A DNA stretch of 64,000 bases from Bryobacterales bacterium (GCA_965226215.1 CBDDCH010000001.1:34761-98760), one strand, 5' to 3'; shown: positions 6,627 through 55,239, counted from the stretch's first letter. Program-made: numbers and translations. Notes: a model not told the origin generated them from the sequence alone.

Positions 6627-6678
6627 TCGCCAGGCAGACCCCACAAGGAGGCGAAGGACAGTGCCCGCGGCGACCCGC

Positions 6679-7103: not shown

Positions 7104-7122
7104 GCCACAACGGCAGTGAGCG

Positions 7123-8442: not shown

Positions 8443-8736
8443 CTCCTACTATGCGCTGAGCGCGAGCCTGCGCTGATGCGGGGGTCGATCGTCTCGCTAA
8501 AGCGTTCGGGGACCGAGGCCTTGGCCCCTTTCGGGAACCGTGGCGCTCCCACAAGGCGTCTCCCCGCGATTTCCCGGGGCGAAGACCGACCCGAACCGCC
8601 TTTAAAATAAGAAGGATAGCAGATACGACCGACTCAGGGTGCTCCGAGTCTTGTCTCATGCAAGATGAGTCTGAACGAGGAGTTTGTTTCTCACACAAGA
8701 TGAGCCTGAAGGATCGGGGAGTGGGCATGCTGGGAA

Positions 8737-29879: not shown

Positions 29880-31178
29880 GGCTCTTCCGGGTTTTAAGTG
29901 GGCGAAGGAGCCAGATCGAGTTTCCCACAGTGGAAGTAGATGGCGTTGATGAAGTTCTGTTGATTGCGGAAACCGCGCGCCGTGGCCTTGACCCATTGAA
30001 TCCTTGAGTTCAACCCCTCGCTGACCGCGTTCGTAATGCGGTGTTTCAGATACGTGAGTATGTTTTCGAGGCGAGCCGTCAACATCCGCGCTACGGTGAC
30101 CATCGGCGTCAGCCGGCTGCGACTCGCCCAGCCGCGCCATTGCTCGAAGAAAGCTCGCGCCGCCGATTCGCGACGATAGTCGAACAGCCGCATCGCCGTT
30201 TCCTTCAACGCCCACGCCCGCGCCGTCTTCAAGTCGCTTTCGCGCAGCGCGCGGAACTCGCGCCAGGCGTCCTCGGAAAAGTTCGCCGGATGCCGCAGCC
30301 AAGCGTACTTCGTGCCTGTCAAACGCTCGTCGCCGAGGGCCAGTAAACGCTTGTTCTCCGCCCGCCGCACCTGGTCCACCGCCTTCGCCAGATGCGCCGC
30401 GATGTGATATTTGTCGTAAACGATCTTTTTCTCCGATTCGTCGAGATGCTCCCGGGTCGAGGCGACGTAAGGATCCCACATGTCCATCGCGACGGCCTCG
30501 ACTCGGGCGAGTTGCTCTGCGCTCAACGTCTTCCAAAAGCCGTCCAGGCTGGCCTGGCTGCGTCCCTCGGCGACGAACAACACGCGCGAGCGGTTGAGAT
30601 CGTTGACGACGGTGAGATAGCGATGGCGCTTGCGGAAGCTCTTCTCGTCGACGCCCAGGTAGGGAATCGGCTCTGCCGCGCGACGTTCGAGCCCACGTTG
30701 CACGGCGCGTTCCAGGATGCCGTGAATCTCGTCCCAGCTCAGCGCCAGCAACTCGGCGATGCCTTGCTGGCTGGCTTCCTTCAGCCACGAGATCGCGAGA
30801 GCTTCAAACAGCGCGGTGAAGCGGCTGGAAGCCTCGGCCCAGGGCAGTCGCACGACGCGCGGCCCGTGCTCGGAGCAGTCGCTGCGCGGCGGCCGGGCGT
30901 GCAGGATCGTGCGGTACTGACAGGTGTCGAGGTGACGCCAGCGGCGTTCGGGCTGATGATCGTGGAGTGCGCACACGGCGCTGCATTGGCGGCACGGCCA
31001 GCGGACTTGCTCGTCGTGTTCGAGGAAGACGTGGACTTCGCCGTCGGCTCGGCGCAGCTCCACTCGCACGACTTTCCAGGGACTTTCGATGCCCAGAATC
31101 TGGCGGTATAGCTCGCGGTCTTGCATCCCGCGAGACTACCACCGAGCCTCACTCGCCCACTAGAAACCCGGAAGAACC
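29880..31178 (-). mobile_element. ISL3-family insertion sequence
   Basis: TIRs GGCTCTTCCGGGTTTTAAGTGGGCGA and (reverse complement) GGTTCTTCCGGGTTTCTAGTGGGCGA. 8-bp TSD AGAAAATC at 29872-29879 and 31179-31186. Confidence 0.93.
29894..31126 (-). CDS. ISL3 transposase
   Basis: CRQC..RRWRHLD, LGVDEKSF, AMDMWDPY, YDKYH, TNAVSEGLNSRI...ARGFRN. Confidence 0.95.
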   Translation of the reverse strand: MQDRELYRQILGIESPWKVVRVELRRADGEVHVFLEHDEQVRWPCRQCSAVCALHDHQPERRWRHLDTCQYRTILHARPPRSDCSEHGPRVVRLPWAEASSRFTALFEALAISWLKEASQQGIAELLALSWDEIHGILERAVQRGLERRAAEPIPYLGVDEKSFRKRHRYLTVVNDLNRSRVLFVAEGRSQASLDGFWKTLSAEQLARVEAVAMDMWDPYVASTREHLDESEKKIVYDKYHIAAHLAKAVDQVRRAENKRLLALGDERLTGTKYAWLRHPANFSEDAWREFRALRESDLKTARAWALKETAMRLFDYRRESAARAFFEQWRGWASRSRLTPMVTVARMLTARLENILTYLKHRITNAVSEGLNSRIQWVKATARGFRNQQNFINAIYFHCGKLDLAPSPT

Positions 31179-37311: not shown

Positions 37312-39066
37312 ATGCCTGACGCTGAAACTGACCCGGTTTTGTTCGAGGTGATTCGAAACGCGCTGGTCGAGGCGGCGGAGGAAATGTCGGTCTCTTTGCG
37401 GAGGACCGCCTACTCCACGAATATCAAGACGCGCCTCGACTATTCCTGTGCCTTCGTTGACGCCGCGGGCCGCATGGTGGCGCAAGCTTTTTGCCAGCCG
37501 GCGCATCTCGTGACGACCGGACGCATTGTTCCCCGTGCCGTACGCGAGTATGGTCCCGAGAACCTCGAGTCCGGAGACGGACTACTGGTGAACGATCCCC
37601 ACCGCCAAGCCAGCCATTTGAACGACATCTTTCTCATCTCACCTTTTTTCCATGAAGGCAAGTTGATCGGCTACGTGGCGAACACCTGCCATCACGTCGA
37701 CGTAGGCGGCGGCGCTCCAGCCAGCATTGGAGTGTTTCGCGAGATCTATCAAGAGGGATTCATCCTCCCGGTTGTGAAGCTCCTCTCTCGCGGAGAAGTT
37801 GTAGAAGACGTCTTGAAAATGTTTCTGGCAAACGTACGGGCTGGCAAGGAAGTGGCCGGCGATCTGCGGGCACAGATCGCAGCTAACAGAATCGGCATTC
37901 GCCGGCTCGCCCAGCTTTTCGATCGTTACGGTGCCGAGACGCTTCGTCATTACGTCGACCGGCTTATCGACTACAGCGAGCAACGGCTTCGAGCAGAGAT
38001 TCGCGAACTGCCGCAAGGCACGTTCGAGGCCGAAGGCTACCTCGACGACGACGGCATCACGAGAGAGCCAGTCCATCTGAGAGCGAAGGTCACAATCGCG
38101 GGGGATCAGGCAACTTTTGACTTCACTGGAACGGACCCGCAGAGACCTGCGCCGATGAATTGCAATCTGACGCAGACCTTCACCGCCTGCGTGTTTGTGT
38201 TGAAGTGTCTGACGGACCCGGATATTCCGCTCAATGAGGGCTTCTACCAACCGATTCACGTCATTGCGCCCCAAGGTCTGGCGGTCAACCCGAGACCGCC
38301 GACGGCGATTGTGGGAGGTTGGGAAGTCTGCGCACGATTGTGTGAGGTCCTCTTCAAGGCTTTCTCAGCAGTTCTTCCGGAAAAGGTTCCGGCGGGGACC
38401 AAGGGGATGATCTGCCAGATCGGATTCGGCGGCCGCGACCCTCGTAGCGGCGAGTATTACTGCTTCTACGAGACGATGGCGGGAGGTTACGGCGGCCGGC
38501 ACTCATCCGACGGACCCGACGCCGTGCAGACGCACGTCCAGAACACGCAAAACGCCCCCGTGGAAGAGACCGAGCAGAACTACCCTGTGCGCATTATTCG
38601 GTACAGTCTCATCCCTGACTCCGAGGGCCCCGGACGGTTTCGCGGAGGGCTTGGCCTATGCCGCGAATACCAGTTTGTAGATCACGAACCCGTATTCACG
38701 ATCCTCGCTGACCGGGCTAAGTTCCCCCCCTGGGGATTGTTCGGGGGGGGGGATGGAAAGTGCGCTAGATACTCTCTGATCTCGGACGGCGGCGAGAAAG
38801 AGATTGGCTCGAAAACCAGTTTGACCGTCAGGAACGGTGAAAGGATTCGTATGGAGACTTGCGGTGGTGGCGGCTACGGGTCTGCTTGGGAGCGGGATCC
38901 GGAGCGTGTACTGCGGGATGTTCGGGAGGGCAAGGTCAGTGCCCATCGGGCGAGGAGTCGCTATGGGGTTGCGATCGACTCACGTTCAGGGACGATCGAC
39001 TTTGACGAGACAGACCGATTGCGGAGCCGACTTCGATGCAGTTCGATCCCATCCTCTTCGAAGTAA
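37312..39066 (+). CDS. Hydantoinase B / oxoprolinase family, paralog 1
   Basis: EEM...RRTAYSTNIK..LDYSCA, NDPH..SHLND, HHVDVGG, GPGRFRGG, GGGGYG. Confidence 0.93.
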   Translation: MPDAETDPVLFEVIRNALVEAAEEMSVSLRRTAYSTNIKTRLDYSCAFVDAAGRMVAQAFCQPAHLVTTGRIVPRAVREYGPENLESGDGLLVNDPHRQASHLNDIFLISPFFHEGKLIGYVANTCHHVDVGGGAPASIGVFREIYQEGFILPVVKLLSRGEVVEDVLKMFLANVRAGKEVAGDLRAQIAANRIGIRRLAQLFDRYGAETLRHYVDRLIDYSEQRLRAEIRELPQGTFEAEGYLDDDGITREPVHLRAKVTIAGDQATFDFTGTDPQRPAPMNCNLTQTFTACVFVLKCLTDPDIPLNEGFYQPIHVIAPQGLAVNPRPPTAIVGGWEVCARLCEVLFKAFSAVLPEKVPAGTKGMICQIGFGGRDPRSGEYYCFYETMAGGYGGRHSSDGPDAVQTHVQNTQNAPVEETEQNYPVRIIRYSLIPDSEGPGRFRGGLGLCREYQFVDHEPVFTILADRAKFPPWGLFGGGDGKCARYSLISDGGEKEIGSKTSLTVRNGERIRMETCGGGGYGSAWERDPERVLRDVREGKVSAHRARSRYGVAIDSRSGTIDFDETDRLRSRLRCSSIPSSSK

Positions 39067-40772
39067 TTCGTAATTCCTTGGTGGAGGCTACCGAGGAGAT
39101 GTCCGTGTGTCTGCAACGTACCGCATACTCCACGAATATCAAGACGCGCCTCGACTATTCCTGTGCCTTCGTCGACGCGCAGGGCCGCATGGTCGCCCAA
39201 GCGTTCTGCCAGCCGGCTCATCTAGTGACCATTGGTCGCATCGTTCCCCGGGCCGTGGCGGAATACGGGCCCGAAAACCTTGGGCCCGGTGACGGCCTCG
39301 TCGTTAACGATCCCCACCGCCAAGCCAGCCATTTGAACGACATCTTTCTCATCTCACCTTTTTTCCATGAAGGCAAGTTGATCGGCTACGTAGCGAACAC
39401 CTGCCACCATGTGGATGTCGGCGGAGGCGCTCCGGCGAGCATTGGGGCCTTCCAGGAAATTTACCAGGAAGGGGTCGTCCTTCCTGTCGTCAAGCTCCTC
39501 TCAGAAGGCTCGCTGGTTACAGACATATTCAAGATGCTCGTGGCCAACGTGCGGGCGAAGAAAGAGGTGGCGGGTGACTTACGGGCGCAGATTGCGGCCA
39601 ACGGGATCGGCATTCGAAGGCTGACTCACCTACTCGAACGCCACGGGACCAAGACGATCCGTTTCTACATCGACAGGCTGATCGAATACAGCGAGCAGCG
39701 GACTAGGGACCAGGTTCGCAAACTACCGGCGGGGAGTTTCGAGGCAGAAGGCTTTCTAGACGACGACGGAATTACAGACCGGCCTGTTCGTCTGAAGGCT
39801 CGAGTGACGGTGGACGACGGGCAGGTGACCTTCGACTTCACCGGCACCGACGCCCAAAGACCGGCGCCGATGAATTGCAACCTGACGCAGACGTTCACAG
39901 CTTGCGTCTACGTACTGAAGTGTCTCGTGGATTCGGACATTCCGCTCAATGAGGGCTTCTACCAACCGATTCACGTCATTGCGCCCCAAGGTTTGGCGGT
40001 CAACCCGAGACCGCCGACGGCGATTGTGGGAGGCTGGGAAGTCTGCGCACGATTGTGTGATGTCCTCTTCAAGGCTTTCTCAGCAGTTCTTCCGGAAAAG
40101 GTTCCGGCGGGGACCAAGGCGATGATCTGCCACGCCGGTTTCGGGGGCATCGATCCGCGGACCCATCAATACTACTGCTTCCTTGAGACCTTGGCCGGAG
40201 GTTATGGCGGCCGGATTCGCTCCGACGGACCCGACGCCGTGCAGACGCACGTCCAGAACACGCAAAACGCCCCCGTGGAAGAGACCGAACAGAACTACCC
40301 GGTCCGCATCACCCGCTACAGCTTGATACCGGATTCGGACGGCCCCGGCCGTTTTCGAGGAGGGTTGGGCCTATGCCGCGAATATCTGTTTGTAGATCAC
40401 GAACCCGTATTCACGATCCTCGCTGACCGGGTTAAGTTCCCCCCCTGGGGATTGTTCGGGGGGGGGGATGGAAAGTGCGCTAAATACTCTCTGATCTCGG
40501 ACGGCGGCGAGAAAGAGATTGGCTCGAAAACCAGTTTGACCGTCAGGAACGGTGAAAGGATTCGTATGGAGACTTGCGGTGGTGGCGGCTACGGCCCTGC
40601 TTGGGAGCGGGATCCGGAGCGTGTACTCCGGGATGTTCGGGAGGGCAAGGTCAGCCGGTCCAGGGCGAGAGAGTGCTACGGGGTCGCAATCGATCCGAAG
40701 CATCCAGTCATCGACCAAGAAGAAACGGAACGGCTTCGGTCGGCACTCGAGCGAGAGGCAACCGGGCGATGA
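39036..40772 (+). CDS. Hydantoinase B / oxoprolinase family, paralog 2
   Basis: Close paralog of 37312..39066. Confidence 0.93.
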   Translation: MQFDPILFEVIRNSLVEATEEMSVCLQRTAYSTNIKTRLDYSCAFVDAQGRMVAQAFCQPAHLVTIGRIVPRAVAEYGPENLGPGDGLVVNDPHRQASHLNDIFLISPFFHEGKLIGYVANTCHHVDVGGGAPASIGAFQEIYQEGVVLPVVKLLSEGSLVTDIFKMLVANVRAKKEVAGDLRAQIAANGIGIRRLTHLLERHGTKTIRFYIDRLIEYSEQRTRDQVRKLPAGSFEAEGFLDDDGITDRPVRLKARVTVDDGQVTFDFTGTDAQRPAPMNCNLTQTFTACVYVLKCLVDSDIPLNEGFYQPIHVIAPQGLAVNPRPPTAIVGGWEVCARLCDVLFKAFSAVLPEKVPAGTKAMICHAGFGGIDPRTHQYYCFLETLAGGYGGRIRSDGPDAVQTHVQNTQNAPVEETEQNYPVRITRYSLIPDSDGPGRFRGGLGLCREYLFVDHEPVFTILADRVKFPPWGLFGGGDGKCAKYSLISDGGEKEIGSKTSLTVRNGERIRMETCGGGGYGPAWERDPERVLRDVREGKVSRSRARECYGVAIDPKHPVIDQEETERLRSALEREATGR

Positions 40773-42871
40773 ATAACTCCTATCGGTTGGGAATCGACAT
40801 TGGCGGAACCTTCACGGATGCCGTGCTGGTGTCCGAGGAGACCGGCGAGGTACAGATCGCCAAGGTGCCGTCGACGCCGAAAGATCCGTCCATCGGCTTC
40901 CTAAACGCGCTGACGAGAATCTTGGAGAAAGCTGAACTGGAACCGGAAAGTGTTTCTTTTCTGGTGCACGGCACCACTGTCGCCACGAATTTGCTCATCG
41001 AAGGAAAGACCCCCAAGACGGCGTTCATCACCACCGCCGGTTTCGGGGACATGCTCGAAATCGCCCGTCAAGTTCGACCGTCGCTTTACGACGTGCATTT
41101 CGAGAAACCCCGGCCCCTGGTTCCTCGAAACCTCGCCTATGAAGTGTCCGAACGGCTGGATGCCCAGGGCAGCGTCCTGCTTGCGCTGGACCCGTCGAGC
41201 GTGGAGCGGATCGCGGAGGAACTCCAGAACGAGGAGGTCGCGTCGGTTGCGGTGTGCCTGCTCCACTCCTACAGCAATGCGGCCCACGAGCAGCAAGTTC
41301 GCGACATCCTGCTGAAGCAAAACCCCCACCTTACTGTTTCGCTCTCGTCGGACGTTCTGCCGGAGTTTCGCGAGTACTTCCGTGCCAGCACAACCGTCGT
41401 CAACGCCTGTTTGCGTCCCGTCGTCGAGTCCTATTTGACGGACCTTGCGACTCGACTGAAGACCCAACGTGTTCAGGCTGAGCTGCTCGTCATGCAGTCG
41501 AATGGAGGTGTGCTGACCTTCAAGACCGCGGCCGAAAAACCGGTCTACATGGTGGAGTCCGGGCCCGCGGCAGGGGTGATCGCGGCCAACTATGTCGCCG
41601 CAGCGGCCGGGCAGCGGGACTTGATTTCCCTCGACATGGGAGGAACGACCACCAAGGTGGGATTGGTTCTCGACGGTCAACCGAAGATCACTACGGAGTA
41701 TGAGCTGGGAACTGAGGCTGTGGCAGGGTTCGGGGAGTCGCGCGGCAGCGGATACCCGATTCGGACGCCGGTGATCGATCTGGTGGAGATCGGTGCGGGG
41801 GGCGGCAGTATCGCTTGGGTCGATTCGGGGAATATCCTTCGCGTAGGCCCGCAAAGCGCCGGTGCGGAGCCGGGGCCCATTTGCTACGGCCGGGGCGGCA
41901 GGGAGCCGACCCTCACTGACTCCAACCTGGTGCTCGGTCGCATCAACCCTCATTACTTTCTCGGCGGCGAGATGGAGCTGGACAGTGAAGCTGCGGCTGA
42001 AGGGGTCCGTGAGAAGTGTGGGAAACGGATGGGCTGGGACGCGGTCGCCGCCGCCAACGGCATCGTTGAAATCGCGAACGCCGCCATGATCAACGCCTTA
42101 CGGCTAGTTTCGGTGAGGCGAGGCTACGACCCTCGCGAGTTGGCGATGGTCGCTTTCGGCGGCGCGGCCCCGCTTCACGCCAATCGACTTGTGGCCGAGA
42201 TGCAGATCCCTCTTCTCATCATTCCTCCGAGCCCTGGCACTACGTCGGCTCTGGGGTTGCTGGTGACTGACCTGCGGCACGCATTCTCACACACTCGGGT
42301 AACCAAACTGGATCGCGCGGAGCCACCAGGGATCACGCGCTTGTTCGACGCTATGGAGGACGAGGGTCGGCAGACGCTCGCTCGCGATGGCGTTCCTAAC
42401 GAACGGATACACTTGCAGCGAGAGATCGAGGCACGCTACGTCGGCCAGTCCCATGAAGTGTCGGTAGCCTGCCCCGGTGGGGAACTCACCGCGGAGTCCC
42501 TCCGCGAGGTGGCGGCACGCTTTCACCAGGGACATGAGCAAGCCTATGGACACTCCTACTCGCAGGAAGAGGTCGAGCTGGTCACGTTTCGTGTCACGAC
42601 GATCGGGTCGATCGAGAAGCCGAAGCCTCGCGCGCTGGCGGATCGTGGGTTCAATCTGGAGCAGGCGCAGCGCGAAGTCCGTCCGGTTTTCTTTGCCGAA
42701 GAGAAGCGCTTCCAGCCAACGGCGATCTACGATCGCTATCGGCTGTCTCCCGGCCAGAGCTTCGAAGGTCCTGCGATTGTGGAGGAGATCGACTCCACCT
42801 CGCTGATCCACCCCGGCTTCCGGGCGGAGGTCGACCGATGCGGGAACCTGCTGGTGACTCCCCGATCTTGA
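40769..42871 (+). CDS. Hydantoinase A / oxoprolinase family ATP-binding subunit
   Basis: GIDIGGTFTD, HGTTVATN, ESGPAAG, DMGGTT, GAGGGSIA; ATGA overlap with the previous gene. Confidence 0.93.
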   Translation: MNNSYRLGIDIGGTFTDAVLVSEETGEVQIAKVPSTPKDPSIGFLNALTRILEKAELEPESVSFLVHGTTVATNLLIEGKTPKTAFITTAGFGDMLEIARQVRPSLYDVHFEKPRPLVPRNLAYEVSERLDAQGSVLLALDPSSVERIAEELQNEEVASVAVCLLHSYSNAAHEQQVRDILLKQNPHLTVSLSSDVLPEFREYFRASTTVVNACLRPVVESYLTDLATRLKTQRVQAELLVMQSNGGVLTFKTAAEKPVYMVESGPAAGVIAANYVAAAAGQRDLISLDMGGTTTKVGLVLDGQPKITTEYELGTEAVAGFGESRGSGYPIRTPVIDLVEIGAGGGSIAWVDSGNILRVGPQSAGAEPGPICYGRGGREPTLTDSNLVLGRINPHYFLGGEMELDSEAAAEGVREKCGKRMGWDAVAAANGIVEIANAAMINALRLVSVRRGYDPRELAMVAFGGAAPLHANRLVAEMQIPLLIIPPSPGTTSALGLLVTDLRHAFSHTRVTKLDRAEPPGITRLFDAMEDEGRQTLARDGVPNERIHLQREIEARYVGQSHEVSVACPGGELTAESLREVAARFHQGHEQAYGHSYSQEEVELVTFRVTTIGSIEKPKPRALADRGFNLEQAQREVRPVFFAEEKRFQPTAIYDRYRLSPGQSFEGPAIVEEIDSTSLIHPGFRAEVDRCGNLLVTPRS

Positions 42872-43026
42872 CGGACGCGGAGAAGAACGCCTTGGCGAAA
42901 CGGAACGAAGCCGACACAATGGACCGCATCCCGTTGCCTGGCTTCAATCCTTGGCTAGCTCTCGCTCTTCTCGTGATTGCCGGATTCCTCTACAACTGGT
43001 TGTGGGGTTTCATTCTGGGAGGGTAG
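42868..43026 (+). CDS. Small single-TM protein (possible symporter accessory subunit)
   Basis: TTGA overlap with the previous stop; one hydrophobic helix; lies directly before the symporter. Confidence 0.5.
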   Translation: MTDAEKNALAKRNEADTMDRIPLPGFNPWLALALLVIAGFLYNWLWGFILGG

Positions 43027-43031
43027 TTCGC

Positions 43032-44468
43032 TTGCACCCCATTCAACCATCCTGGTGGCTCATCCTGGTCTACCTGGTCTTGATGCTGGGGGTAGGTCTC
43101 TGGGGCCGAGGGAGGATCGCGACCACGGATGACATGGCCGTCGCCGGACGCCGCTCCGGCGTCTGGTTGATTGCCTTCTCCGTGGCGGCCACCTGGATCA
43201 ATGGCACCACCCTGATCGGTATTTCCGCCCTGGGGAGGGATTTCGGGCTGTGCGCTTACTGGGCGGGCGGCTCCTTTCTGTTGACCACGATCTGGATCGG
43301 GTTCTACATCATTCCTAGACTCCGCGAGACAGGCATCGTCACCATCCCAGAGCTGTTCGAGCGTTTCTTCGGTCCCAAGTACCGGTTGCTTTCCCTGTGT
43401 CTGGTTATTCTCCGGGACCTGGGGGTTACCGCCGGCACGATCGGAGCCCTAACGGTCGTTACGACCGGCTTGCTGGATATATCCGCGCTCGAAGCGCAGG
43501 CTCTGTGGCTCGGCGTGACGATTGTCTATGTCTTTCTGGGTGGCATGTGGGCCGTCTTGGTTACGGATGCGATCCAGTTCGTCATCATCATGGTCGCGAC
43601 TGTAGGCCTTCTGGCCGCGGGTTTCGCGCAGTTCGGCGGGGCGCGGGGCGTCGCTGCGCAAGTCGACCCGGAGATGCTGGGACTTCTCGGCAAAGCGGGA
43701 ATGGCTCAGGTCGCGGGGTGGGTCGTGATCGGGATCGCCGTCACGTGCGGGTACCAAGGGATCATACAACGGGGCCTCGCGGCTTCCAGTCCGGAAGTGG
43801 CACGGCGGGGCTTCCTCTACGGGGGGATCATCGGCACATTCTGGTACATGATTCCTCCTCTTCTTGGTGTGCTCGGTCAGGCGATGTACGGTGATGAAGT
43901 GAAAGCGGAAGACACGTTCGTGGAGGTGGCCTTTGGTGTTGCGGACGGGCAGTTGGCGACGATCGTTGTGGTCTGTGTTCTGGCGGCAAGCATGTCGACT
44001 TTGTCTTCGACCATCAACACAATGGCGTCCAACCTCACGATTGACATTTACAAACGATTCATGAACCCGCTGGCAAGCGTACGACGTCAGATCTGGGTCT
44101 ATCGGGTCAGCATTGTACTGGTGGGACTGCTGGCGACGGTCCTCTACTATGTCGTGCCGCTGCTGATCGAGTTGTTCTGGCTGGGAGGACGCATCATGGG
44201 GGCCTCCGTCGCTCCCGCTCTGGTCGCACTTGTTCTGTTCCCGAGCGTCAGACAAGCGCCAACGACAGTCCTGGCGGCAATGATCCTAGGTGCCACGACC
44301 GTAGCCTTATTGCAAATCTTTGGAGCCATTCAACAAATCGGGGCGGTCGTCATTGTCTGGCAGCTCGACCCAATACTGGTTGGCTTGCCGGTCGCGATTC
44401 TGATCCTCGCTTTGGGAACTCGGTACGAAACCAGATCCGGGAATCTGAGCAGCTGCGGGCCCCACTGA
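43032..44468 (+). CDS. Sodium:solute symporter (SSS) family protein
   Basis: D..VAGR, TIPELFERFF, YVFLGGMWAVLVTDAIQ, LAASMSTLSS...TIDIY; GGGAGG RBS before the TTG. Confidence 0.92.
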   Translation: MHPIQPSWWLILVYLVLMLGVGLWGRGRIATTDDMAVAGRRSGVWLIAFSVAATWINGTTLIGISALGRDFGLCAYWAGGSFLLTTIWIGFYIIPRLRETGIVTIPELFERFFGPKYRLLSLCLVILRDLGVTAGTIGALTVVTTGLLDISALEAQALWLGVTIVYVFLGGMWAVLVTDAIQFVIIMVATVGLLAAGFAQFGGARGVAAQVDPEMLGLLGKAGMAQVAGWVVIGIAVTCGYQGIIQRGLAASSPEVARRGFLYGGIIGTFWYMIPPLLGVLGQAMYGDEVKAEDTFVEVAFGVADGQLATIVVVCVLAASMSTLSSTINTMASNLTIDIYKRFMNPLASVRRQIWVYRVSIVLVGLLATVLYYVVPLLIELFWLGGRIMGASVAPALVALVLFPSVRQAPTTVLAAMILGATTVALLQIFGAIQQIGAVVIVWQLDPILVGLPVAILILALGTRYETRSGNLSSCGPH

Positions 44469-48240: not shown

Positions 48241-49323
48241 TCACGGGCCGGCGATCGCTATGCTCGACGTATCCCCTTCCATCTCGCTGGGCATGCGGAT
48301 TGTAAGCGGAACCTGATCACCTGCCTGCGCCTCCAAAGGTACCCGGGCGTTAATCTGATACAACCCCGAAAAGCTGGGCGCCAACCCGGAGAAATCAACT
48401 CTCGCCTGGATTCCTCCGATCGTCACCTCGGGCGTCTCAACCGTGTTGTACCCGCCAGGGGCTAGCATTCCCGTCGGCAAGGGATCGCCCGCCGGGTCGC
48501 CACCCGGTGTGGCCTTGCCCAGACCGGTAACGAAGATCTGTAGTATCACGCCCGGAGACACCGGCTCCCCGCAATCGGCTAAAGGAGCCACCCCGCCCGC
48601 CTTGCAGTTCGTCGGGATGCCCAGCGTGGCCGCTGTCGAAGCGGGAATGGCCAGATGCCTGGTTGGCCCACGATTCGGGACGTCGGGGTCGAAGGCAACC
48701 AAAGCCGCCGCGTAAATGCGGCCCACCGGGTCGGCGCGATAAATACCCGTGCTCGCCGGCGCCATCGCCAGCATGAACACATCGCTGGTTCCCGCCGAAT
48801 TCGTGACCTCCACTTGAACCTGGTCCATCTCGGGCAGATCGGTCGGCGCCAGGACGTTGATCTGAGGGAAGGGAGTCGCTCCAAACACGCCAAACAGCGG
48901 CGCGGCCGTGCCGTCAAACAGGACCGATATTCCCTCCGCCTCGAATTGAGTGGAAGGGAACAGAAAGTCCTGATTGATCATGCCGAAGTCCTGGCCGAAA
49001 ACGGCCAGGATGGAACCAGGCGCCGCCGGTGCGTTGGCGAGAAAACTGGCGCTGCTAACGATGCCTCCGACGGTCGGTGAGACGGCCGGTGACACCGTAA
49101 CCTGTCGCCGCAACAGGTTGCCTGAGGCGTCGTAGGTGTAGTTGATCGCACTTCCTCCACCATAGTCGGCGGCGATCAACCGGCCGGCCTCGTCGTAGCG
49201 GTACTGGACGGTGGTCTGGGCCGACAGGCAACTTGCCGCGAGAAGGAACAGGCAGCATTTCCAAAGTTCGTTCATCGCTCTCTTCGTTACGTCTTCATCG
49301 CTTCGTGCCGGTTCGTCATTCAT
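48241..49323 (-). CDS. Secreted protein: short YD/RHS repeat fused to TIGR03437-type domain
   Basis: Signal peptide; YRYDEAGRL...YTYDASGNL; then VSSASF..APGSILAVFG, LQIFVTGLG, SGLAPSFSGLYQIN. Alternative start at 49275. Confidence 0.8.
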   Translation of the reverse strand: MNDEPARSDEDVTKRAMNELWKCCLFLLAASCLSAQTTVQYRYDEAGRLIAADYGGGSAINYTYDASGNLLRRQVTVSPAVSPTVGGIVSSASFLANAPAAPGSILAVFGQDFGMINQDFLFPSTQFEAEGISVLFDGTAAPLFGVFGATPFPQINVLAPTDLPEMDQVQVEVTNSAGTSDVFMLAMAPASTGIYRADPVGRIYAAALVAFDPDVPNRGPTRHLAIPASTAATLGIPTNCKAGGVAPLADCGEPVSPGVILQIFVTGLGKATPGGDPAGDPLPTGMLAPGGYNTVETPEVTIGGIQARVDFSGLAPSFSGLYQINARVPLEAQAGDQVPLTIRMPSEMEGDTSSIAIAGP

Positions 49324-52300
49324 CAAGGGCAGGTTGCGAAGGCTTGTGTGTCCGTGATGGCCGGAAAAGAGCTGCCGAGTGGATCGCCATAGGTCTTTGT
49401 CGCTCCAGTCGCCGTGTCGGTCACTCGCAAGGTGTATTCAACGTTCGTGGTCGCCGCGTCGAACACCCAGAAGTTTCCAAAGGCGTTTGTGCCGTTCACA
49501 CCGTCAAGGACTTTGATCAAGAACTCCATGTTGTCAGAGCTAAAGAAGAAAAAGTCGCCCGTGTCGGCCAGTCCCACATCGTCGCAGAGGTTGGAACCCC
49601 CGATGATGTCATTTCCGGGATCGCCAAACACTAAGCCCGTCGAGTTTACGTTGTCCACGGTTATGTACCCCCGGGCAATCGTGCCGGCCGGTACCCCCCC
49701 GGTATTGGGAACGGCTGCGACGCTTCCCGGCGAATCGTCCCGTCGAGTGGTGTCCGGGGGTTTGGGGTCCGTCGCATCCCGCCAGACACTCAGGCGCGTT
49801 CCTCCGTCGAACGCTCCTCCGTTCAGGTAGCGTGCTGCCCAGGTGGTTCCCAGGGGTTCGCGGTTATCCTGGCCGTTCGGTGAACCGCCCGGCTGGACGT
49901 AGCGTCCGTAAAAGGTATAGCCGGTAGGGTTACTGCTGTTGACGCCGCCGAGGTTTGGGTTTAGGTTGCCGAGACCCCAGGGAGCGTTAGCTTCGATCCT
50001 GACGAGATTATCGCCCTCTGCGAAGTTTGTGGCGGAATCCACTATAAACCAATCGCCCCACAACTGGTTTACGTTGGATGCTATGCCCGGCCCTGTACCC
50101 ACGCCGTCCGTGAAAAATGGGTTCAGGCCCGAGGGATCGGCGAACCGCAGAGGTTGGTTGAAGGCGAACTGATACGGATTTACTCCGAGCGGGTCCAAAA
50201 GTAGAACCGGATCGCGGCTCAAGAACCGTGCGGTGGCGGCGTCGTAGTACCTTCGGCGCATGTTGTAGAGCGTGGTTCCGGGTTCCCACATCACGCCGAA
50301 CGCACCATGATAGACAAAGGGCTGATCGGAGCCGCCCTGATGCCGCACCTCTTCGCCAAAGGGTGTCACCGCGTAGGCGTCCGTCATCGCACCGCTTGCG
50401 CCGGTAAGCATCATCGTCGAGCCAACTTGGTCGAAGTGATAGAACCTGGGGCTGTTGTCGGCAGACTCGATGCTGTAAAGCAGCATACCGTTTGGTTCAT
50501 AGACGTAGTAACGTTGGTCGGCGCCCGCGGACCGAACGATGGAGACGGTAGGCAGAGCGTGTGCGTGATTCAGCACATAGGTTTCGCTGCCGCTGGCGGT
50601 CGTCCGAGAAATACGGTTCCCAAGCCCGTCGTAGGTGAACTCGGCGGAGCCGTCTTGGCCGTTGTAGCCCGTCAGCGTCGAGTTGCCGTCCCAGCGATAC
50701 TGTCGCAGCCGGTCGGCCAGCAGCCGGCCAAGATCATCGTAGGTCGCATTCTCCACCTGATGCGCGGTGTCGTAGGAGAGGGGCAGCATGCCCGGCGCGG
50801 GCTGCGTTTGGAGCGGTGCGTCAACCGTAGCTGAAGTGATCTGCCCGTCGTCATCCCGCTCGAGGGTAATCTCCGCCGAGACGTTCATTCCTGTATGGCG
50901 GATGCCGGTTACCTGGTCGTTTTCGTTGTAGGTCAAATCGGTGCTAACGCCGTTGGGACGCTCGATGCGGGTCCTCCGGTCGGCCGCGTCGTAGATGAAC
51001 CGCGTTACACCTCCGGTCCAGTCCGAGAGCTGGGTGAGCCGCCCCCTCATGTCGTATTCGTAGGTCACCTGTTTGCCCGGCGAGTAGGTGATATTCGAGA
51101 TGCGCCCGGCGGAGTCGTACTCGATGAGGATGCCGTTCGAGTCAATGATGCGGCTCTCGGCGTCGCGGCGCAGGGTCAGCCCGGCCGTCGCCAGGAGCTT
51201 ATTGTTCTCGTCATGGGTGTAGTCGTAAGTCGTTCCGTCGAAGAACTGGTTGCGGGTTATTTGGCCGACGGCGTCGAAGGTGCGCCGCGTCAATCCCAGC
51301 GGCGTTTGGATCTCGTGCCGCCTCCCACGTTGGTCATAGTCGTAGCTAATGGTTCGCCCGAGAGGATCGGTCAAGGAAGTTTGCCGCCCGCCGCCGTCAT
51401 ATGCGCGCAGCCATTGGTTGCCATTCGGGTCTGTCAGGGTACTCAGTTCGCCGAGACCATTGAACTGGTATCCGGTGATGATTCCGGCGGCGTCAACCTG
51501 CGAGAGATTCCCGCGCGCGTCATAGCGAAACGCTCGCGACCGGCCGGTGGCGCTCCGTGTTGAAGTCATGCGGCCGACCGCGTCGTAGGTGTAGTTAATC
51601 GTTTGCCCGCCCGGGGCTGTGAGACCCGTCACCCTTCCCGCCGCGTCGTGGACCAAGGAGCCGGTCTTGCCAAGAGCATCTGTAACGGACGTGAGCCTTC
51701 CATTGGCGTCGTAGCCATAATCGACCGAAGTTCCCAAGTCGTCGGTGACGGAGGTCAGCAGATTGCGTCCGTCGTAGGTAAAGCGAACGGCCTCGCCGGC
51801 TCCGTTTCGCACTTCGGACACGTTGCCCACGGGGTCGTACTGAACTGCGCGGGTGTCGCCTGTGCGGTCGGTGAAGCTCGCCAGGCGGCTATTCCCGTCA
51901 TAGTTAAAGCGGCGAGAGTTGCCGAGCGGGTCCGTCATCGTGCGGATCCGGTTGTTATCGTCGTATTCGATTTGTACTGCGTGACCCAGTTCATTGGTCA
52001 CCCCCACGATGTTGTCCGACTCGTCGACTTCGAGGCCGCGCTCGGAGCCATCCCCATTCCGAATCGTGCTGATCCTCTTTAGGAGATCGTAGGAGAAGTT
52101 TCGCGCGACCCCGCCGGCGTCAATCGCTTCCGCCAACGAGCCGTCGGCATTGGGGGTGTACCGGCCTGTTCCGCCGAGCGGGTTGGTCAGGGTTAACAAC
52201 TGTCCTCGCTCGTCGTAGGTGAAGGTCCAGTCATCGCCCGCGCGGTCGGTGAACCTCGTCAAGTTGCCTAGGGCGTCGTACTCGTACTGCTCGGTGGCAG

Positions 52301-53495
52301 CGTCGGGAAAGGTGAGCCGAGCAGGAACGTAGGCGCGAAAGCCGTCCTGGTCCTGTTGCTGGTATTCCATGGTCCAGGTGGCTCCGGAAAAGTCGGTTAC
52401 GCTGGCCGGGAAACCGGAGGGATTGTGATACGTGAAAAGCGCCTGGCTTCCCATGCGGTCGGTGTAGGCGACGATGCGATTGTTCCCATCGTAGGCGGAG
52501 GCATCGGTATTGCCGGCGCTATCGGTTGAACCCGAGAAGTTCTCACCGCCGGAGTGGGTGTAGCCGCTGACTTGGCCTAAGGGGTCGAGCACCGTCGTGC
52601 CTTCGCCGTCAGGGGGCTGATCGTATTCGAATGTCGTGACATTGCCCTCGCCATCGGTCTGGGTACCGACACGCCCGTCACCGTCGAAGGTTTGGGTGTT
52701 GAGCCTGCTGCCGTCGGGTAGGGTCGACGTTGTCATCAGCCCCTCGAGGTCTCCCTGGGCCGTGTAAGAGTAGGTTGTCGTCGCTCCCTTTGCATCGGTG
52801 AAGGTGGTCAGGTTGTCCCCGGTGTATCCGAACTGCACTCCGCGGCCGGTTTGATCCTCGACACGAGTCAGCTTGCCGCCGGTGTAGGTGAACGCGAGCG
52901 AGCGGCCGAGTCCGTCGGTGACCGTGTCGGGACTGTTGGCGCCCTGGGTTACGGTCAGCGCGTTGCCGTTGCGATCCTCGATCCGTGTCAGGCGGCCCAT
53001 GGCGTCGAAGGTGTAGATGCGGGTTGTGGAAAGATCCAGAAAGCGGAGCCCACCCCCGTCGGCGTCCTGCAACTGATGATCAAGTTTTTCCGTGCTCGAC
53101 AGCGCCCAGTCACCGCCGTCCCGCTGGAAGGGGGTGGTTTTGCCGCCGAAGAGGTTGACGGTTGCCGTGTCCCCATCGACGGCCACGGAGAAATCGAAGT
53201 TGTGAGTCCAGTTGTTGCCGAGAGTCCCGGTGAAACCTCTGGCCGTCAAATAAGCCGCGTAATACCGGCCAAACGTCAGCGCGAGCGGGCCGCCCAAGAA
53301 CAGGTCCGGCCGGAGGATGTTCGGGTCATGCACCTCGCCCGTGGCGAGAGAGACGGGGTCTCCGAAGGGCTGCGGGTTGTCCGCTGCCGCGTTGGTCAGC
53401 TTCAGGAGCTGTCCTATTACGGTGAAATCGAAGCGCGCTACGTTACTGCCGGCACAGCTTGAGCTCGTGGCGGTTATAGCCCAATTGACAGTCAC
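49323..53495 (-). CDS. RHS repeat-associated core protein (DUF6531-like + YD repeats + core + 266-aa tip)
   Basis: GDPVSLATGE, LG.NWTHNF, many YD repeats, FYHFDQVGS, RRYYD...RFLSRDP...NQPLRFADPSGL. Probably continuous with 53492..53911 across a frameshift. Confidence 0.9.
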   Translation of the reverse strand: MTVNWAITATSSSCAGSNVARFDFTVIGQLLKLTNAAADNPQPFGDPVSLATGEVHDPNILRPDLFLGGPLALTFGRYYAAYLTARGFTGTLGNNWTHNFDFSVAVDGDTATVNLFGGKTTPFQRDGGDWALSSTEKLDHQLQDADGGGLRFLDLSTTRIYTFDAMGRLTRIEDRNGNALTVTQGANSPDTVTDGLGRSLAFTYTGGKLTRVEDQTGRGVQFGYTGDNLTTFTDAKGATTTYSYTAQGDLEGLMTTSTLPDGSRLNTQTFDGDGRVGTQTDGEGNVTTFEYDQPPDGEGTTVLDPLGQVSGYTHSGGENFSGSTDSAGNTDASAYDGNNRIVAYTDRMGSQALFTYHNPSGFPASVTDFSGATWTMEYQQQDQDGFRAYVPARLTFPDAATEQYEYDALGNLTRFTDRAGDDWTFTYDERGQLLTLTNPLGGTGRYTPNADGSLAEAIDAGGVARNFSYDLLKRISTIRNGDGSERGLEVDESDNIVGVTNELGHAVQIEYDDNNRIRTMTDPLGNSRRFNYDGNSRLASFTDRTGDTRAVQYDPVGNVSEVRNGAGEAVRFTYDGRNLLTSVTDDLGTSVDYGYDANGRLTSVTDALGKTGSLVHDAAGRVTGLTAPGGQTINYTYDAVGRMTSTRSATGRSRAFRYDARGNLSQVDAAGIITGYQFNGLGELSTLTDPNGNQWLRAYDGGGRQTSLTDPLGRTISYDYDQRGRRHEIQTPLGLTRRTFDAVGQITRNQFFDGTTYDYTHDENNKLLATAGLTLRRDAESRIIDSNGILIEYDSAGRISNITYSPGKQVTYEYDMRGRLTQLSDWTGGVTRFIYDAADRRTRIERPNGVSTDLTYNENDQVTGIRHTGMNVSAEITLERDDDGQITSATVDAPLQTQPAPGMLPLSYDTAHQVENATYDDLGRLLADRLRQYRWDGNSTLTGYNGQDGSAEFTYDGLGNRISRTTASGSETYVLNHAHALPTVSIVRSAGADQRYYVYEPNGMLLYSIESADNSPRFYHFDQVGSTMMLTGASGAMTDAYAVTPFGEEVRHQGGSDQPFVYHGAFGVMWEPGTTLYNMRRRYYDAATARFLSRDPVLLLDPLGVNPYQFAFNQPLRFADPSGLNPFFTDGVGTGPGIASNVNQLWGDWFIVDSATNFAEGDNLVRIEANAPWGLGNLNPNLGGVNSSNPTGYTFYGRYVQPGGSPNGQDNREPLGTTWAARYLNGGAFDGGTRLSVWRDATDPKPPDTTRRDDSPGSVAAVPNTGGVPAGTIARGYITVDNVNSTGLVFGDPGNDIIGGSNLCDDVGLADTGDFFFFSSDNMEFLIKVLDGVNGTNAFGNFWVFDAATTNVEYTLRVTDTATGATKTYGDPLGSSFPAITDTQAFATCP

Positions 53496-53911
53496 CCGGG
53501 CGGTCCCGGGCCTGACGGGTTTGACGATGACATCTGCGTGATCCGCCCCGGGGCGGTGTACGGGATCGTGCGTGCGCTTCCGAGGCCGCCGCCCTGCTGT
53601 TCGATGCCCACGGCGCTACCCTGCACCGTAGCGGTCACCGTGGTGGTGCAGTTCATCTCACTGCCATCGTTCATGACACGAATTGTTATCTGCGAGCCGG
53701 ACAGGTTCACCGGTACCGTGGCGCCCGCAGGCACTTCCGTCGAATTGTTCTGTTCGTCGATGACGAAGAACTGGTGGGCTTGGGCGCCGGTCGCTCCGAC
53801 CACGAGCAGCAGGACGACCACGCACATCCATCGGGCGAACCGGTTCGGACGCGCCCTAGATAGAGGATGCGCTTCCGACGCGAGTTCGTGTTTCGCTAGA
53901 CCAAACATCAC
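53492..53911 (-). CDS. Probable N-terminal part (signal peptide + Ig-like strands) of the RHS protein, separated by a frameshift near 53550
   Basis: Signal peptide ...VVGATGAQA. The RHS frame reads DHADVIVKPVRPGTARVTVNW upstream of 53495, beginning at a CCCCGGGG run. Confidence 0.6.
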   Translation of the reverse strand: MMFGLAKHELASEAHPLSRARPNRFARWMCVVVLLLVVGATGAQAHQFFVIDEQNNSTEVPAGATVPVNLSGSQITIRVMNDGSEMNCTTTVTATVQGSAVGIEQQGGGLGSARTIPYTAPGRITQMSSSNPSGPGPPG

Positions 53912-54192: not shown

Positions 54193-54258
54193 TGCCGGCG
54201 ACATTCCTTCCTGGAAAGATTCTAGCTTGGGCAGGCGGCAAAAGGAGGCCGCTTGCCC

Positions 54259-55239
54259 ATGAATCAACCGACTCAGCGACGTACCCGTCGCAGGAGAAAA
54301 TCCCCAACCTTGCCCGAACTCGAACAGGCAAAGGCTGCCGTCCTCAATAGCCTCGGGTCTCTGCAGTCTCGCCGGTCATACGGCCGTGCGATGAAGGAAT
54401 TCATCACCTGGTATTGCTCGGAGCCTCGACTGGCGCTGAACCGCTCCGTCGTCCTACGCTACCGCATGCGACTTGAAAACATGCGTCTCGCAGCAGCTAC
54501 CATCAATGTTCGCCTAGCTGCCGTTCGGCGTCTCGCTACCGAAGCCGCCGACAGCGGGCTGCTAAGTCCGGACCTCATCGCCGGCATTCGACGAGTCCGC
54601 GGTGTCAAACAGCTGGGTCGCCGCATCGGAAACTGGCTCACCCCAGAAGAGGGGCAGCGTTTGCTCAGTGCTGTGCCAACCGACCGTCTTCGGGGCAAGA
54701 GGGACGCCGCGATGCTCGGGTTGTTGATCGGGTGCGGACTGCGGCGCTCGGAACTGGTCGAACTCAACGTCGATCAGATCCAACAGCGAGAGGGACACTG
54801 GGTGATCATCGATCTGATCGGCAAGGGTGGCCGCTTGCGCACCGTCCCCATGCCGGGTTGGGTCAAAGACGCTGTAGACGATTGGGTTTGCTCGGCGGAG
54901 ATCACGGGAGGCCGGCTGTTCCGCGCGGTCCGCAAAAATGGTGTGCTGTGGGGCCACGGGTTAACGCAGAATGTGGTCTGGTACGTCGTCAAGGAGTGCG
55001 CCAAGCGAGCTGGGATCCAAAATCTGGCGCCCCATGATCTGCGAAGGAGCTGCGCTCGCCTGTGCCATGAATCGGGAGGGGAGTTGGAGCAGATCCAATT
55101 CCTGCTCGGTCACGCCTCCGTACTAACGACGGAACGTTACATCGGCTGCAAGCAACGGCTCAGCTGTGCGGTGAATGACCGGATCACGTTGCGTGCTGAG
55201 AACTCTCCCGACTCCGAACCATCTGAGTTCACCGGCTAG
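54259..55239 (+). CDS. Tyrosine recombinase (XerC/D-like fold), intact
   Basis: GLRRSEL, GKGGR, PHDLRR, LLGH, TTERY catalytic set; AGGAGG RBS. Confidence 0.92.
   Translation: MNQPTQRRTRRRRKSPTLPELEQAKAAVLNSLGSLQSRRSYGRAMKEFITWYCSEPRLALNRSVVLRYRMRLENMRLAAATINVRLAAVRRLATEAADSGLLSPDLIAGIRRVRGVKQLGRRIGNWLTPEEGQRLLSAVPTDRLRGKRDAAMLGLLIGCGLRRSELVELNVDQIQQREGHWVIIDLIGKGGRLRTVPMPGWVKDAVDDWVCSAEITGGRLFRAVRKNGVLWGHGLTQNVVWYVVKECAKRAGIQNLAPHDLRRSCARLCHESGGELEQIQFLLGHASVLTTERYIGCKQRLSCAVNDRITLRAENSPDSEPSEFTG

Follow-up and report, generated by a model that had tools for sequence, protein, structure and literature searches.

An RHS protein from a Bryobacterales bacterium with a C-terminal tip that very probably combines fragments of two secreted-protein families

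RHS proteins are regarded as cages for enzymatic or pore-forming toxins that are paired with immunity proteins. The region after their PxxxxDPxGL motif is normally a toxin, followed by the immunity gene, and DUF6531 is an N-terminal domain frequent among them. In Zhang et al. 2012 (PMC3482391), some polymorphic toxin tips are proposed to be non-catalytic and to act by binding, namely OmpA-like peptidoglycan-binding tips, Ntox38, and W-TIP, and toxins without an adjacent immunity gene are described as probably aimed at other organisms. Here, we analyze an RHS locus in a 64,000-nucleotide stretch of DNA (the window) from a Bryobacterales bacterium, the producer.

The RHS gene and its neighbors

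The RHS/YD-repeat shell protein is encoded on the minus strand at window positions 49323..53495. Its open reading frame and translation give 1,390 residues with a GTG start, and no signal peptide is visible in the translation. A plus-strand translation of the region initially annotated contained stops throughout and was rejected. The protein matches Pfam RHS_repeat (PF05593) in 13 stretches (E = 1.7e-85) and the NCBIfam model TIGR01643 in 10 stretches (E = 7.2e-64), repeats that are predicted to be sufficient for a shell. DUF6531 (Pfam PF20148) occupies residues 45 to 120 (53136..53363, minus strand; E = 5e-12, 46.4 bits against a cutoff of 24.1), and the RHS repeat-associated core (TIGR03696; 53 bits against a cutoff of 32.5) occupies residues 1044 to 1124 (50124..50366, minus strand). 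The core match spans profile positions 2 to 76 of 76 and terminates in PLRFADPSGL, a presumed autoproteolysis site whose last residue is 1124. The core also aligns with solved Rhs and teneurin-like shells at their C termini, and several of these shells stop at DPxGL. Judged by sequence, the core is intact, with a complete Rhs_assc_core domain. By homology to solved Rhs proteins, the tip would be cleaved after DPSGL and enclosed by the shell, and we consider its status as cargo to be probable.

The genes on either side of the RHS gene both encode secreted proteins. Upstream, an open reading frame of 139 residues with a signal peptide (53492..53911, minus strand) has a stop codon that overlaps the RHS start (GTGA), and its product is conserved in orthologous loci, with 54% identity to L003 and L002. 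Downstream, a protein with a signal peptide, two YD repeats, and Soli_cterm (48241..49275, minus strand; TIGR03437, E = 9.9e-35) begins about 48 nucleotides past the RHS stop, the position expected of an immunity gene. This protein is syntenic in L003 and L002, with 33 to 34% identity, compared with 74 to 77% for the tips of these loci. No cognate immunity gene was found directly downstream, the neighbors conserved in the three loci being secreted proteins; its absence fits more than one of the readings discussed below. A tyrosine recombinase of the phage integrase family borders the operon (54253..55239, plus strand; Pfam PF00589, E = 1.7e-25). The T6SS sheath model PF05943 (TssC/VipB) has no match in the producer genome, which is 94.4% complete, and no PAAR or VgrG domains were reported on the RHS protein or the scanned open reading frames.

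Composition and origin of the tip

The tip comprises residues 1125 to 1390 (266 residues; 49326 to 50123 plus the stop codon, minus strand), exactly the span after the PxxxxDPxGL motif that the initial annotation had given. It is rich in glycine (38), threonine (28), asparagine (24), aspartate (24), and proline (18), and its GC content of 0.56 to 0.65 is not distinct from the surroundings. The accompanying claim that the tip carries no recognizable toxin motif also holds in our searches, which returned no Pfam family at E ≤ 10, no NCBIfam family at E ≤ 1, and no PDB sequence at E ≤ 10. The first 157 residues gave no usable match in the ESM Atlas, and titles and abstracts retrieved in a literature search contained no description of the tip or of the module at its end. 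The predicted structure of the tip has a pLDDT of 53, a low value that is no proof of an unfolded piece. A VIA-align search with this model, which effectively covered residues 166 to 266, returned only generic beta-sandwiches, with an unspecific best Z of 5.8.

By blastp and profile searches, separate blocks of the tip matched separate homologs. We term these family A and the CTD module. With E values between 1e-27 and 1e-36 for the family A piece and between 1e-35 and 1e-46 for the CTD module, the matches lie far past chance, and in composition and origin the tip is very probably a mosaic of two different secreted-protein families, as had been proposed. Matches to both families occur in 13 of 332 collected proteins, every one of them an RHS tip. 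Among the best 150 of 8,350 hits, only four match the tip over its full length. Each of these is the C-terminal end of an RHS protein, and three bear an RHS-type Pfam annotation. A Holophagae sequence (L026) that aligns with tip residues 13 to 265 by tblastn was considered as a natural colinear template and rejected, as its parts lie in different frames with no clean open reading frame. Where records of the two families carry a name, they belong to metagenome-assembled genomes of Thermoanaerobaculia, Acidobacteriota, or Holophagae, consistent with the donors suggested earlier, Thermoanaerobaculia-type Acidobacteria. At the DNA level, the tip shares no more than 68 to 86% identity with native genes of family A and of the CTD, over short stretches, which, together with the unremarkable GC content, indicates that the fragments were captured long ago rather than recently.

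Family A consists of secreted proteins of about 470 residues with two beta-sandwich domains (profile length, 454) and matches no Pfam or NCBIfam model. Tip residues 3 to 121 (49761..50117, minus strand) are an internal fragment of this family, covering profile positions 202 to 309 of 454 (E = 3e-46); they align with residues 225 to 329 of one member (P0102, 479 residues) at 57% identity and likewise with 10 other members. A linker at tip residues 122 to 141 (49701..49760, minus strand; ATDPKPPDTTRRDDSPGSVA...) is common to most orthologs and has no homolog outside RHS tips. It is followed by a second family A fragment at residues 142 to 175 (49599..49700, minus strand; PAGTIARGYITVDNVNS...), which covers profile positions 175 to 226 (E = 0.007; 6e-4 to 7e-6 in four tips). 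Residues 142 to 182 align with P0102 residues 195 to 236 at 55% identity. These two profile stretches are all that the tip contains of the full-length, two-domain architecture with its signal peptide.

The structure model of family A is confident (pLDDT 92.3, pTM 0.92) and places its beta-sandwiches at residues 30 to 264 and 298 to 466. The captured piece (about residues 218 to 329) is less than a quarter of the parent and straddles the junction of the two domains; according to this model, it does not constitute a domain. Domain 1 resembles 1nc7_A in VIA-align (Z 8.0, rmsd 3.0, 111 residues aligned), and domain 2 reaches only Z ≤ 4.5 against known structures. Foldseek of the family A model against the PDB gave no match at E ≤ 0.001, and the ESM Atlas returned only "hypothetical protein" clusters from Acidobacteriota. 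Proteins with FG-GAP repeats adjoin family A in four of seven loci and offer no functional clue. Within the tip model, the first family A piece has a pLDDT of 28 to 60 despite the 46 aligned rows supplied, and the second is below 50.

These data bear on the view that the tip is a conventional toxin against bacteria or eukaryotes that adopts a new fold after release and damages, for example, a membrane or cell-wall polymer. The similarity to family A and the CTD module would then reflect the origin of the raw material only, and immunity would lie elsewhere, reside in the downstream protein, or be unnecessary. The slot after DPSGL in an intact RHS protein is the canonical toxin position, and many RHS tips belong to no known family. 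The family A polar residues retained in the tip (N, W, D, R, D-x-R-E, and W-R-D) could form an active or ligand site; the purifying selection described below and the export of the downstream gene product, as in periplasmic immunity proteins, are also in keeping with a toxin. However, all searches for a toxin family, motif, or fold came back empty, the tip model is poor, and the family A piece is a minor part of its parent taken from across two domains. Further, the downstream protein, made of YD repeats and the generic Soli_cterm of the lineage, is far less conserved between loci than the tips. We regard a conventional toxin as doubtful.

The remainder of the tip derives from the CTD module, a C-terminal beta-sandwich of about 110 residues (profile length, 112) that occurs in 8,350 protein clusters and matches no Pfam or NCBIfam model. 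Native CTDs sit in pairs at the end of secreted proteins of very different kinds, including unrelated enzymes and binders; they are paired in 207 of 222 proteins, end no more than 5 residues from the C terminus in 191 of the 222, and have four conserved cysteines in each copy. The tip instead holds a single, incomplete copy at residues 176 to 266 (49326..49598, minus strand; profile positions 34 to 112 of 112), rather than the complete unit in tandem. It ends in AFATCP-stop, and ATCP-stop is shared by 72 of 207 native terminal copies. This part of the tip is modeled as a beta-sandwich (pLDDT 67 to 84). Partial CTD pieces are also present in a few Bryobacterales proteins, and fragment shuffling may be common across the phylum, with no need for mimicry.

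The tip CTD is structurally closest to accessory sandwich domains found in polysaccharide lyases and glycosidases (Z 5.1 to 5.8, unspecific). This would suit an explanation in which the locus is not a weapon and the RHS shell forms an extracellular or surface complex with the small secreted protein and the YD/Soli_cterm protein. The tip would then serve the producer, for example, as a released or exposed binding module for a polysaccharide or host matrix, in the manner of the teneurins. The conserved three-gene arrangement with its two secreted partners, the failure to find the T6SS sheath gene in the producer genome, and the "sponge metagenome" label on five of the runs holding the stretch agree with such a role, and teneurins, as described in Zhang et al. 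2012 (PMC3482391), provide a precedent for a YD shell in adhesion or signaling. Yet the RHS core and cleavage motif are complete, features linked to encapsulation in solved Rhs proteins, the CTD of the window variant is single and truncated, and the producer has no other CTD protein to suggest a ligand of its own. A surface complex therefore seems improbable to us.

The mosaic is found in 16 distinct RHS tips. The ARGYIT block, which is the second family A fragment, is present in 7 of them; the other 9 have a complete CTD start in its place, giving a sister variant with one complete CTD copy. This distribution indicates that the block is a secondary replacement of the CTD start. The initial annotation had described the block as out of its usual order. 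Indeed, its counterpart in P0102 lies upstream of the counterpart of the first piece, so that the parental order is swapped in the tip; the displacement thus stands, whereas membership of the block in the original design does not. The 16 RHS-tip family A pieces form one clade among 118 sequences, with weak support (0.405), and there is evidence of recombination within the tips.

Between orthologs, dN/dS is 0.21 to 0.43 for the tip, compared with 0.12 to 0.16 for the core (core rows of L034, with dN/dS above 0.5, were left out, as the region 5' of the L034 tip lies in another frame). Within the tip, the ratio is 0.15 to 0.50 for the family A piece and 0.08 to 0.36 for the CTD piece, and dS among tips reaches about 2. 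These ratios indicate that the tip is under purifying selection. Over the 37 family A columns that are best conserved, the tips agree with the family consensus at 91% on average, a comparison biased by the fact that the family A rows were gathered with the tip as query. Retention of the parents' conserved residues is a feature that we also note beside the interference mechanism considered below. The tip is covered by contigs of three runs from three studies with no differences, no indels, and an intact frame, and an uninterrupted frame is likewise seen in the window, L003, and L032. An RNA library also yields contigs that match the RHS gene, in the tip (226 bases with no difference) as well as elsewhere along it; this result counts matching contigs and leaves bins without cover out of the reading.

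Damaged copies of the gene also exist. In databases, the gene occurs with a frameshift in the tip (P0008 and P0011), the L002 RHS gene is broken into three frames, L004 is a remnant only, and the second RHS gene of the producer genome is likewise split. Such copies could mean that the tip is inert filler, a by-product of recombination in an RHS gene that is decaying or kept for its shell. However, faulty assembly may account for many of these breaks, and the low dN/dS at such high dS, the retained residues of the parent, and the intact frames make inert filler very unlikely.

Possible action of the cargo

The tip sequence has no match elsewhere in the producer genome at 94.4% completeness, and the family A profile matches this genome only inside the tip. 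The abundant C-terminal module of the producer itself is Soli_cterm, with 33 matches. A producer that has neither the family A nor the CTD family would need no immunity protein against a cargo that acts on them.

We co-folded the tip with family A. The median score was 0.49 (runs of 0.49, 0.58, and 0.02), against 0.00 for the best of three controls; the runs share at least 27% of contacts, and the partner has a pLDDT of at least 38. In calibration, the mark was reached by 116 of 157 solved complexes and 2 of 215 mismatched pairs, and at scores of 0.60 or lower by only 18 solved complexes and both mismatches. According to the tool, a pass of this kind belongs to a weak class that is more often wrong than right. 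The score may also be inflated by the homology of the tip to part of its partner and by family A fragments in the tip alignment. We take the co-fold as weak support for binding of the tip to family A.

Tentatively, we favor a tip that acts by binding or interference. Very probably, the cargo slot of the RHS protein was filled by captured gene fragments, namely, the central 108 positions of family A, a linker, and a terminal CTD copy, and in the window variant the family A stretch located just ahead of the first fragment in the parent later took the place of the first ~30 CTD residues. In the proposed mechanism, the cargo would be non-catalytic and would be released near or into neighboring Acidobacteriota equipped with family A and CTD proteins, where the incomplete pieces may bind partners or ligands of the parent families and so interfere with them. 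Contact with the envelope of a competitor is assumed here, the RHS protein having no signal peptide and TssC/VipB not having been found.

The earlier suggestion of a caged mimic, decoy, or assembly poison is plausible. The lack of an immunity-like gene, a producer without the parents, the fragmentary nature of the pieces, purifying selection, and the weak co-fold together give the decoy or interference reading circumstantial support. A more specific version, in which the pieces are dominant-negative mimics, the inter-domain core of family A and half of a CTD pair docking on intact proteins, receptors, or ligands in co-resident Thermoanaerobaculia-type Acidobacteria, is unlikely on present evidence. 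If this version were true, it would represent a new logic of polymorphic effectors, with weapons made from stolen enemy parts.

Comparison with known systems

The locus resembles the Rhs polymorphic toxins whose C-terminal effector is encapsulated, such as RhsA of Pseudomonas protegens, Tse5, Tse15, and the Rhs core of Salmonella bongori, in its YD shell, its DUF6531 domain, and a core ending in DPxGL. With them it further shares a variable post-cleavage region, homology to solved chains, and recombination within the tip. Unlike these toxins, its tip fits no toxin family and is pieced together from fragments of non-toxin secreted proteins, no PAAR or VgrG domain was reported on the RHS protein or the scanned open reading frames and no TssC match in the genome, no immunity-like gene follows, and the neighbors are a secreted YD/Soli_cterm protein and a small protein with a signal peptide.

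The CTD is similar to Soli_cterm (TIGR03437) in being a lineage-wide module that closes many unrelated secreted proteins, and we take it to be comparable to the C-terminal sorting domain of the T9SS. It differs from both in its tandem pairing, its four conserved cysteines per copy, and the absence of a Pfam or NCBIfam model. The CTD pair, found in 8,350 protein clusters, could represent a new signal for anchoring or sorting.

The non-catalytic tips proposed in Zhang et al. 2012 (PMC3482391) are likewise found at the extreme C terminus, have no catalytic signature, and are proposed to act by binding, and some of them also have no neighboring immunity gene. Each of them is a complete domain from one family, whereas the tip analyzed here consists of incomplete pieces from two families, with their order swapped in one variant. 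Teneurins have a homologous YD shell (the best PDB sequence matches are 9pt5_A and 9ifo_A) and, as described in PMC3482391, a C-terminal slot that serves a purpose other than an active toxin. They are, however, eukaryotic transmembrane proteins with a C-terminal domain derived from a nuclease toxin, in contrast to a bacterial RHS protein with fragments of secreted beta-sandwiches.

Should the cargo act through mimicry or by competing for binding, it would broaden the range of interbacterial effectors and also provide an entry point to two very large, uncharacterized families of secreted proteins in Acidobacteriota. Even an ordinary new toxin would illustrate how RHS tips can arise when the 3' end and internal parts of unrelated genes are captured. 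Overall, the locus departs from the picture of cage, toxin, and immunity protein in that its cargo consists of conserved, non-toxin fragments typical of another bacterial class.

Mosaic make-up of the RHS tip

The RHS protein (1390 aa; 49323..53495, minus strand) contains 13 stretches of RHS repeats (Pfam, E 1.7e-85) and a DUF6531 domain at residues 45-120. The RHS repeat-associated core, matched over its full length by TIGR03696 (53 bits; cut-off 32.5), occupies residues 1044-1124 and ends in PLRFADPSGL; translation of 49326-50123 (minus strand) gives the 266 residues that follow, the tip. Homologs of the core end include solved Rhs and teneurin-like shells, and in several of them the deposited chain stops exactly at DPxGL, which suggests by homology that the tip is cleaved and encapsulated. 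The tip itself matches no family in Pfam (E<=10) or NCBIfam (E<=1) and no PDB sequence (E<=10), and its residues 1-157 gave no usable match in the ESM Atlas.

The tip was searched exhaustively with HMMER against 1.84 billion representatives, and 8350 proteins matched at E<=0.001. Among the best 150 of these 8350, four match the whole tip (P0004, P0007, P0123, and P0010), P0124 covers residues 110-266, and the others cover only ~170-266. Of 2027 candidates in a word-indexed search with residues 1-157, 1191 proteins reached E<=0.01; the non-RHS matches constitute a secreted family, family A, of 430 to 530 residues without any Pfam domain. By blastp, tip residues 3-121 correspond to residues ~225-329 of 11 family A members (51-65% identity), and tip residues 142-182, which hold the ARGY block, to residues ~186-236 in four of the 11 (55-73% identity). 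On a family A profile (A3; 99 sequences, 454 positions), the two pieces map to positions 202-309 and 175-226; the second precedes and slightly overlaps the first in the parent. The last ~90 tip residues correspond to positions 34-112 of a 112-position profile built from 20 native copies of a module of secreted proteins, the CTD. The initial annotation had described a mosaic of two secreted families with the ARGYIT block out of its usual order, and the blastp and profile mapping bear out both points. What fills the cargo slot is a patchwork under constraint, made of incomplete pieces of two secreted families.

Parent families and their owners

A modeled family A member bears a signal peptide and is predicted with high confidence (pLDDT 92.3, pTM 0.92) to form two beta-sandwich domains, residues 30-264 and 298-466. 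The first resembles Thermotoga TM1070 (1nc7_A; Z 8.0 over 111 aligned residues, rmsd 3.0) and, at Z 5.2, the Anabaena sensory rhodopsin transducer (2ii7_A), and the second finds only Ig-, adhesin-, and CBM-like matches (Z<=4.5); Foldseek returned nothing for the model at E<=0.001. In the model, the captured piece (~218-329) straddles the junction of the two sandwiches: it takes in the tail of domain 1, the helix that links the domains, and the beginning of domain 2, and thus is not itself a domain. Neither family A nor the CTD has a model in Pfam or NCBIfam. With 1191 matches (proteins P0094-P0332, loci L005-L023), family A is a large uncharacterized family of ~470 residues, its genes are often in tandem arrays, and FG-GAP repeat proteins adjoin in four of seven loci.

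The CTD is a unit of ~110 residues with four conserved cysteines (C..LCL...DGC...TCP). Among 332 proteins gathered by likeness to the tip, so that the counts describe these relatives and not the whole family, 222 carry it (two copies in 207, one in 14, and four in 1), and in 191 of the 222 no more than 5 residues separate the last copy from the C terminus. Precomputed Pfam annotations place it on subtilases, M64 and M23 peptidases, FN3, PKD, beta-propeller, and ricin-lectin proteins, and many other architectures. Possibly it serves Thermoanaerobaculia-type Acidobacteriota as a so far undescribed module for anchoring or sorting. The proteins that contain it make up 8350 clusters at 50% identity (examples P0012-P0231; loci L035-L054).

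Named records place whole-tip orthologs in Bryobacterales metagenome-assembled genomes (MAGs; L002, L003, and L004) and family A or the CTD in Thermoanaerobaculia, Acidobacteriota, Acidobacteria, and Holophagae MAGs, together with one Acidimicrobiia MAG and some unclassified records. Bryobacterales belong to the class Terriglobia, and Thermoanaerobaculia are a separate class. In the producer's own genome (94.4% complete), the tip matches nothing but itself and the family A profile matches only inside the tip; the producer is without family A and the CTD outside the tip. Across the order, the tip was matched in 11 of 151 genomes: five beyond the window's, all in its family, hold whole or near-whole tips, and the remaining matches are short CTD pieces; searching with the tip brought up no free-standing family A gene. 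Across the phylum, 46 of 401 genomes matched (a tally that includes one genome flagged unpublished, G174, on which none of the conclusions depends), some with 44-118 first-look candidates. Five of the sequencing runs holding the stretch are labeled "sponge metagenome."

Partial CTDs occur in other Bryobacterales proteins (L056, G072:C2; L057, G100:C6; L058, G028:C1), and so fragment shuffling of the module may be common. One of these proteins, of 713 aa, ends in the last 52 CTD residues, and two others have an internal piece of ~55-60 residues between unrelated flanks. In a Holophagae MAG (L026, 1739-2691), a stretch resembling family A (NVNQLWGDWFIV...) and an end resembling the CTD occur ~300 bp apart in different reading frames with no clean ORF, perhaps what is left of a related fusion after decay.

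Constraint, history, and genomic setting of the tip

We found 16 distinct tips. Seven contain the ARGY block (the window's, P0005, P0006 [= L003], P0233, P0234, P0235, and L002), and nine instead have a complete CTD start, C..LCLNNGRFxVxVxW (P0003, P0004, P0007 [= L032], P0009, P0010, P0123, P0124, P0232, and L034). The most divergent tips fall among these nine, and the original design was therefore likely a family A fragment, a linker, and one complete terminal CTD; the ARGY block likely took the place of the first ~30 CTD residues at a later time. The tip ends in ATCP-stop, as do 72 of 207 native terminal CTD copies, and internal copies read on (ATC[SDA]A); the capture therefore took in the 3' end of a gene, stop codon included. 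Among 118 sequences, the 16 family A pieces of the RHS tips group in a single clade, with weak support (0.405). The window's tip and that of L002 differ with a dS of 0.19 over the CTD and 1.49 over the family A piece, evidence that tips recombine internally. Tip DNA is only 68-86% identical to native genes, over short stretches, and has unremarkable GC, which marks the capture as old.

Across tips, dN/dS is 0.21-0.43 (family A piece, 0.15-0.50; CTD, 0.08-0.36), and over 400 core codons it is 0.12-0.16, with the L034 core rows dropped as out of frame. Tips keep the consensus at a mean of 91% in 37 columns conserved in >=90% of family A and at 32% in 43 poorly conserved columns, a comparison biased by the tip having been the query that found the family A rows. 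Contigs from runs X1, X3, and X13 (three studies) cover the tip with 0 differences and 0 indels. RNA-library contigs (X19) match 49740-49965 without a difference and also align elsewhere in the gene, although DNA carry-over is possible. That the tip is inert filler seems very improbable. Some database versions of the RHS protein (P0008, P0011, P0064, and P0114) have frameshifted or shortened tips, and the L002 core (4255-8768) is split over three frames; the cause is assembly error or else genuine decay in some populations. The P0008 and P0011 frameshifts were not seen in the contigs of X1, X3, X13, and X19.

The window, L003, and L002 share a three-gene arrangement: a signal-peptide ORF of 123-139 aa (54% identity across loci) that overlaps at its end with the start of the next gene, the RHS gene itself, and, 12-48 nt downstream, a secreted protein that combines two YD repeats with Soli_cterm (33-34% identity). 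A small cytoplasmic ORF resembling an immunity gene is absent, and TssC was not found in the 94.4% complete genome. The downstream protein (48241-49275, minus strand; L003:8813-9712; L002:8765-9679) is well conserved only in its YD-repeat N terminus, and the 33-34% figure compares with 74-77% for the tips. Soli_cterm (TIGR03437) has 33 matches in the genome, including the two genes downstream of the RHS gene. A phage-type integrase (54253-55239, plus strand) lies directly beside the operon and an ISL3 transposase (29894-31126, minus strand) ~18 kb away, and so the operon may sit on or beside a mobile region.

A second RHS locus of this genome (L055, G000:C2:3610000-3622000) is split over two overlapping frames (3265-6402 and 6362-7681) and has a ~215-aa tip unrelated to the window's and without a Pfam match, followed by a reverse-transcriptase fragment. 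Elsewhere in the window, three successive 316-aa ORFs with 4-nt overlaps (17790-20634, plus strand; 17790-18740, 18737-19687, and 19684-20634) look like a tandem triplication, and a hydantoinase/oxoprolinase B, B, A set followed by a sodium:solute symporter (37312-44468, plus strand) is unrelated to the tip.

A candidate binding cargo

We tentatively favor a cargo that would act through binding, without catalysis, with the partners or ligands of its parent families, family A and the CTD, in neighboring Acidobacteriota as its targets. An AlphaFold2 model of the tip (alignment A4, 46 rows) has a mean pLDDT of 53.2 and a pTM of 0.35 (family A piece, 28-60; ARGY block, <50; CTD, 67-84). Its CTD part is a generic beta-sandwich (best Z 5.8); its structural neighbors belong to polysaccharide lyases and glycosidases, where they serve as accessory domains. 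That the tip is a conventional toxin of a new kind is unlikely. Less probable still is that the locus is not a weapon and serves adhesion or signaling.

Co-folding of the tip with family A gave scores of 0.49, 0.58, and 0.02 (median 0.49; best of three controls, 0.00); the contacts agreed to at least 27%, and the partner's pLDDT was 38 or higher. Of 157 solved complexes in the calibration, 116 reached the mark, as did 2 of 215 mismatches; at scores <=0.60, it was reached by 18 solved complexes and both mismatches. The predictions lend weak support to contact between the tip and family A, and we give them little weight because the chains are partly homologous and the tip's alignment contains family A fragments. 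The initial annotation had read the tip as a mimic, decoy, or assembly poison aimed at another bacterium's surface layer or sorting pathway, an interpretation partly supported, with its displaced-block remark correct.

Zhang et al. 2012 (PMC3482391) propose non-catalytic, binding-type tips (OmpA-like, Ntox38) and argue that toxins without an adjacent immunity gene target other organisms. In the canonical model (PMC11461821, PMC8765631, and PMC8636562), an unfolded toxin lies within the Rhs cocoon. The window encodes a polymorphic RHS protein whose mosaic cargo is unusual and apparently non-enzymatic.
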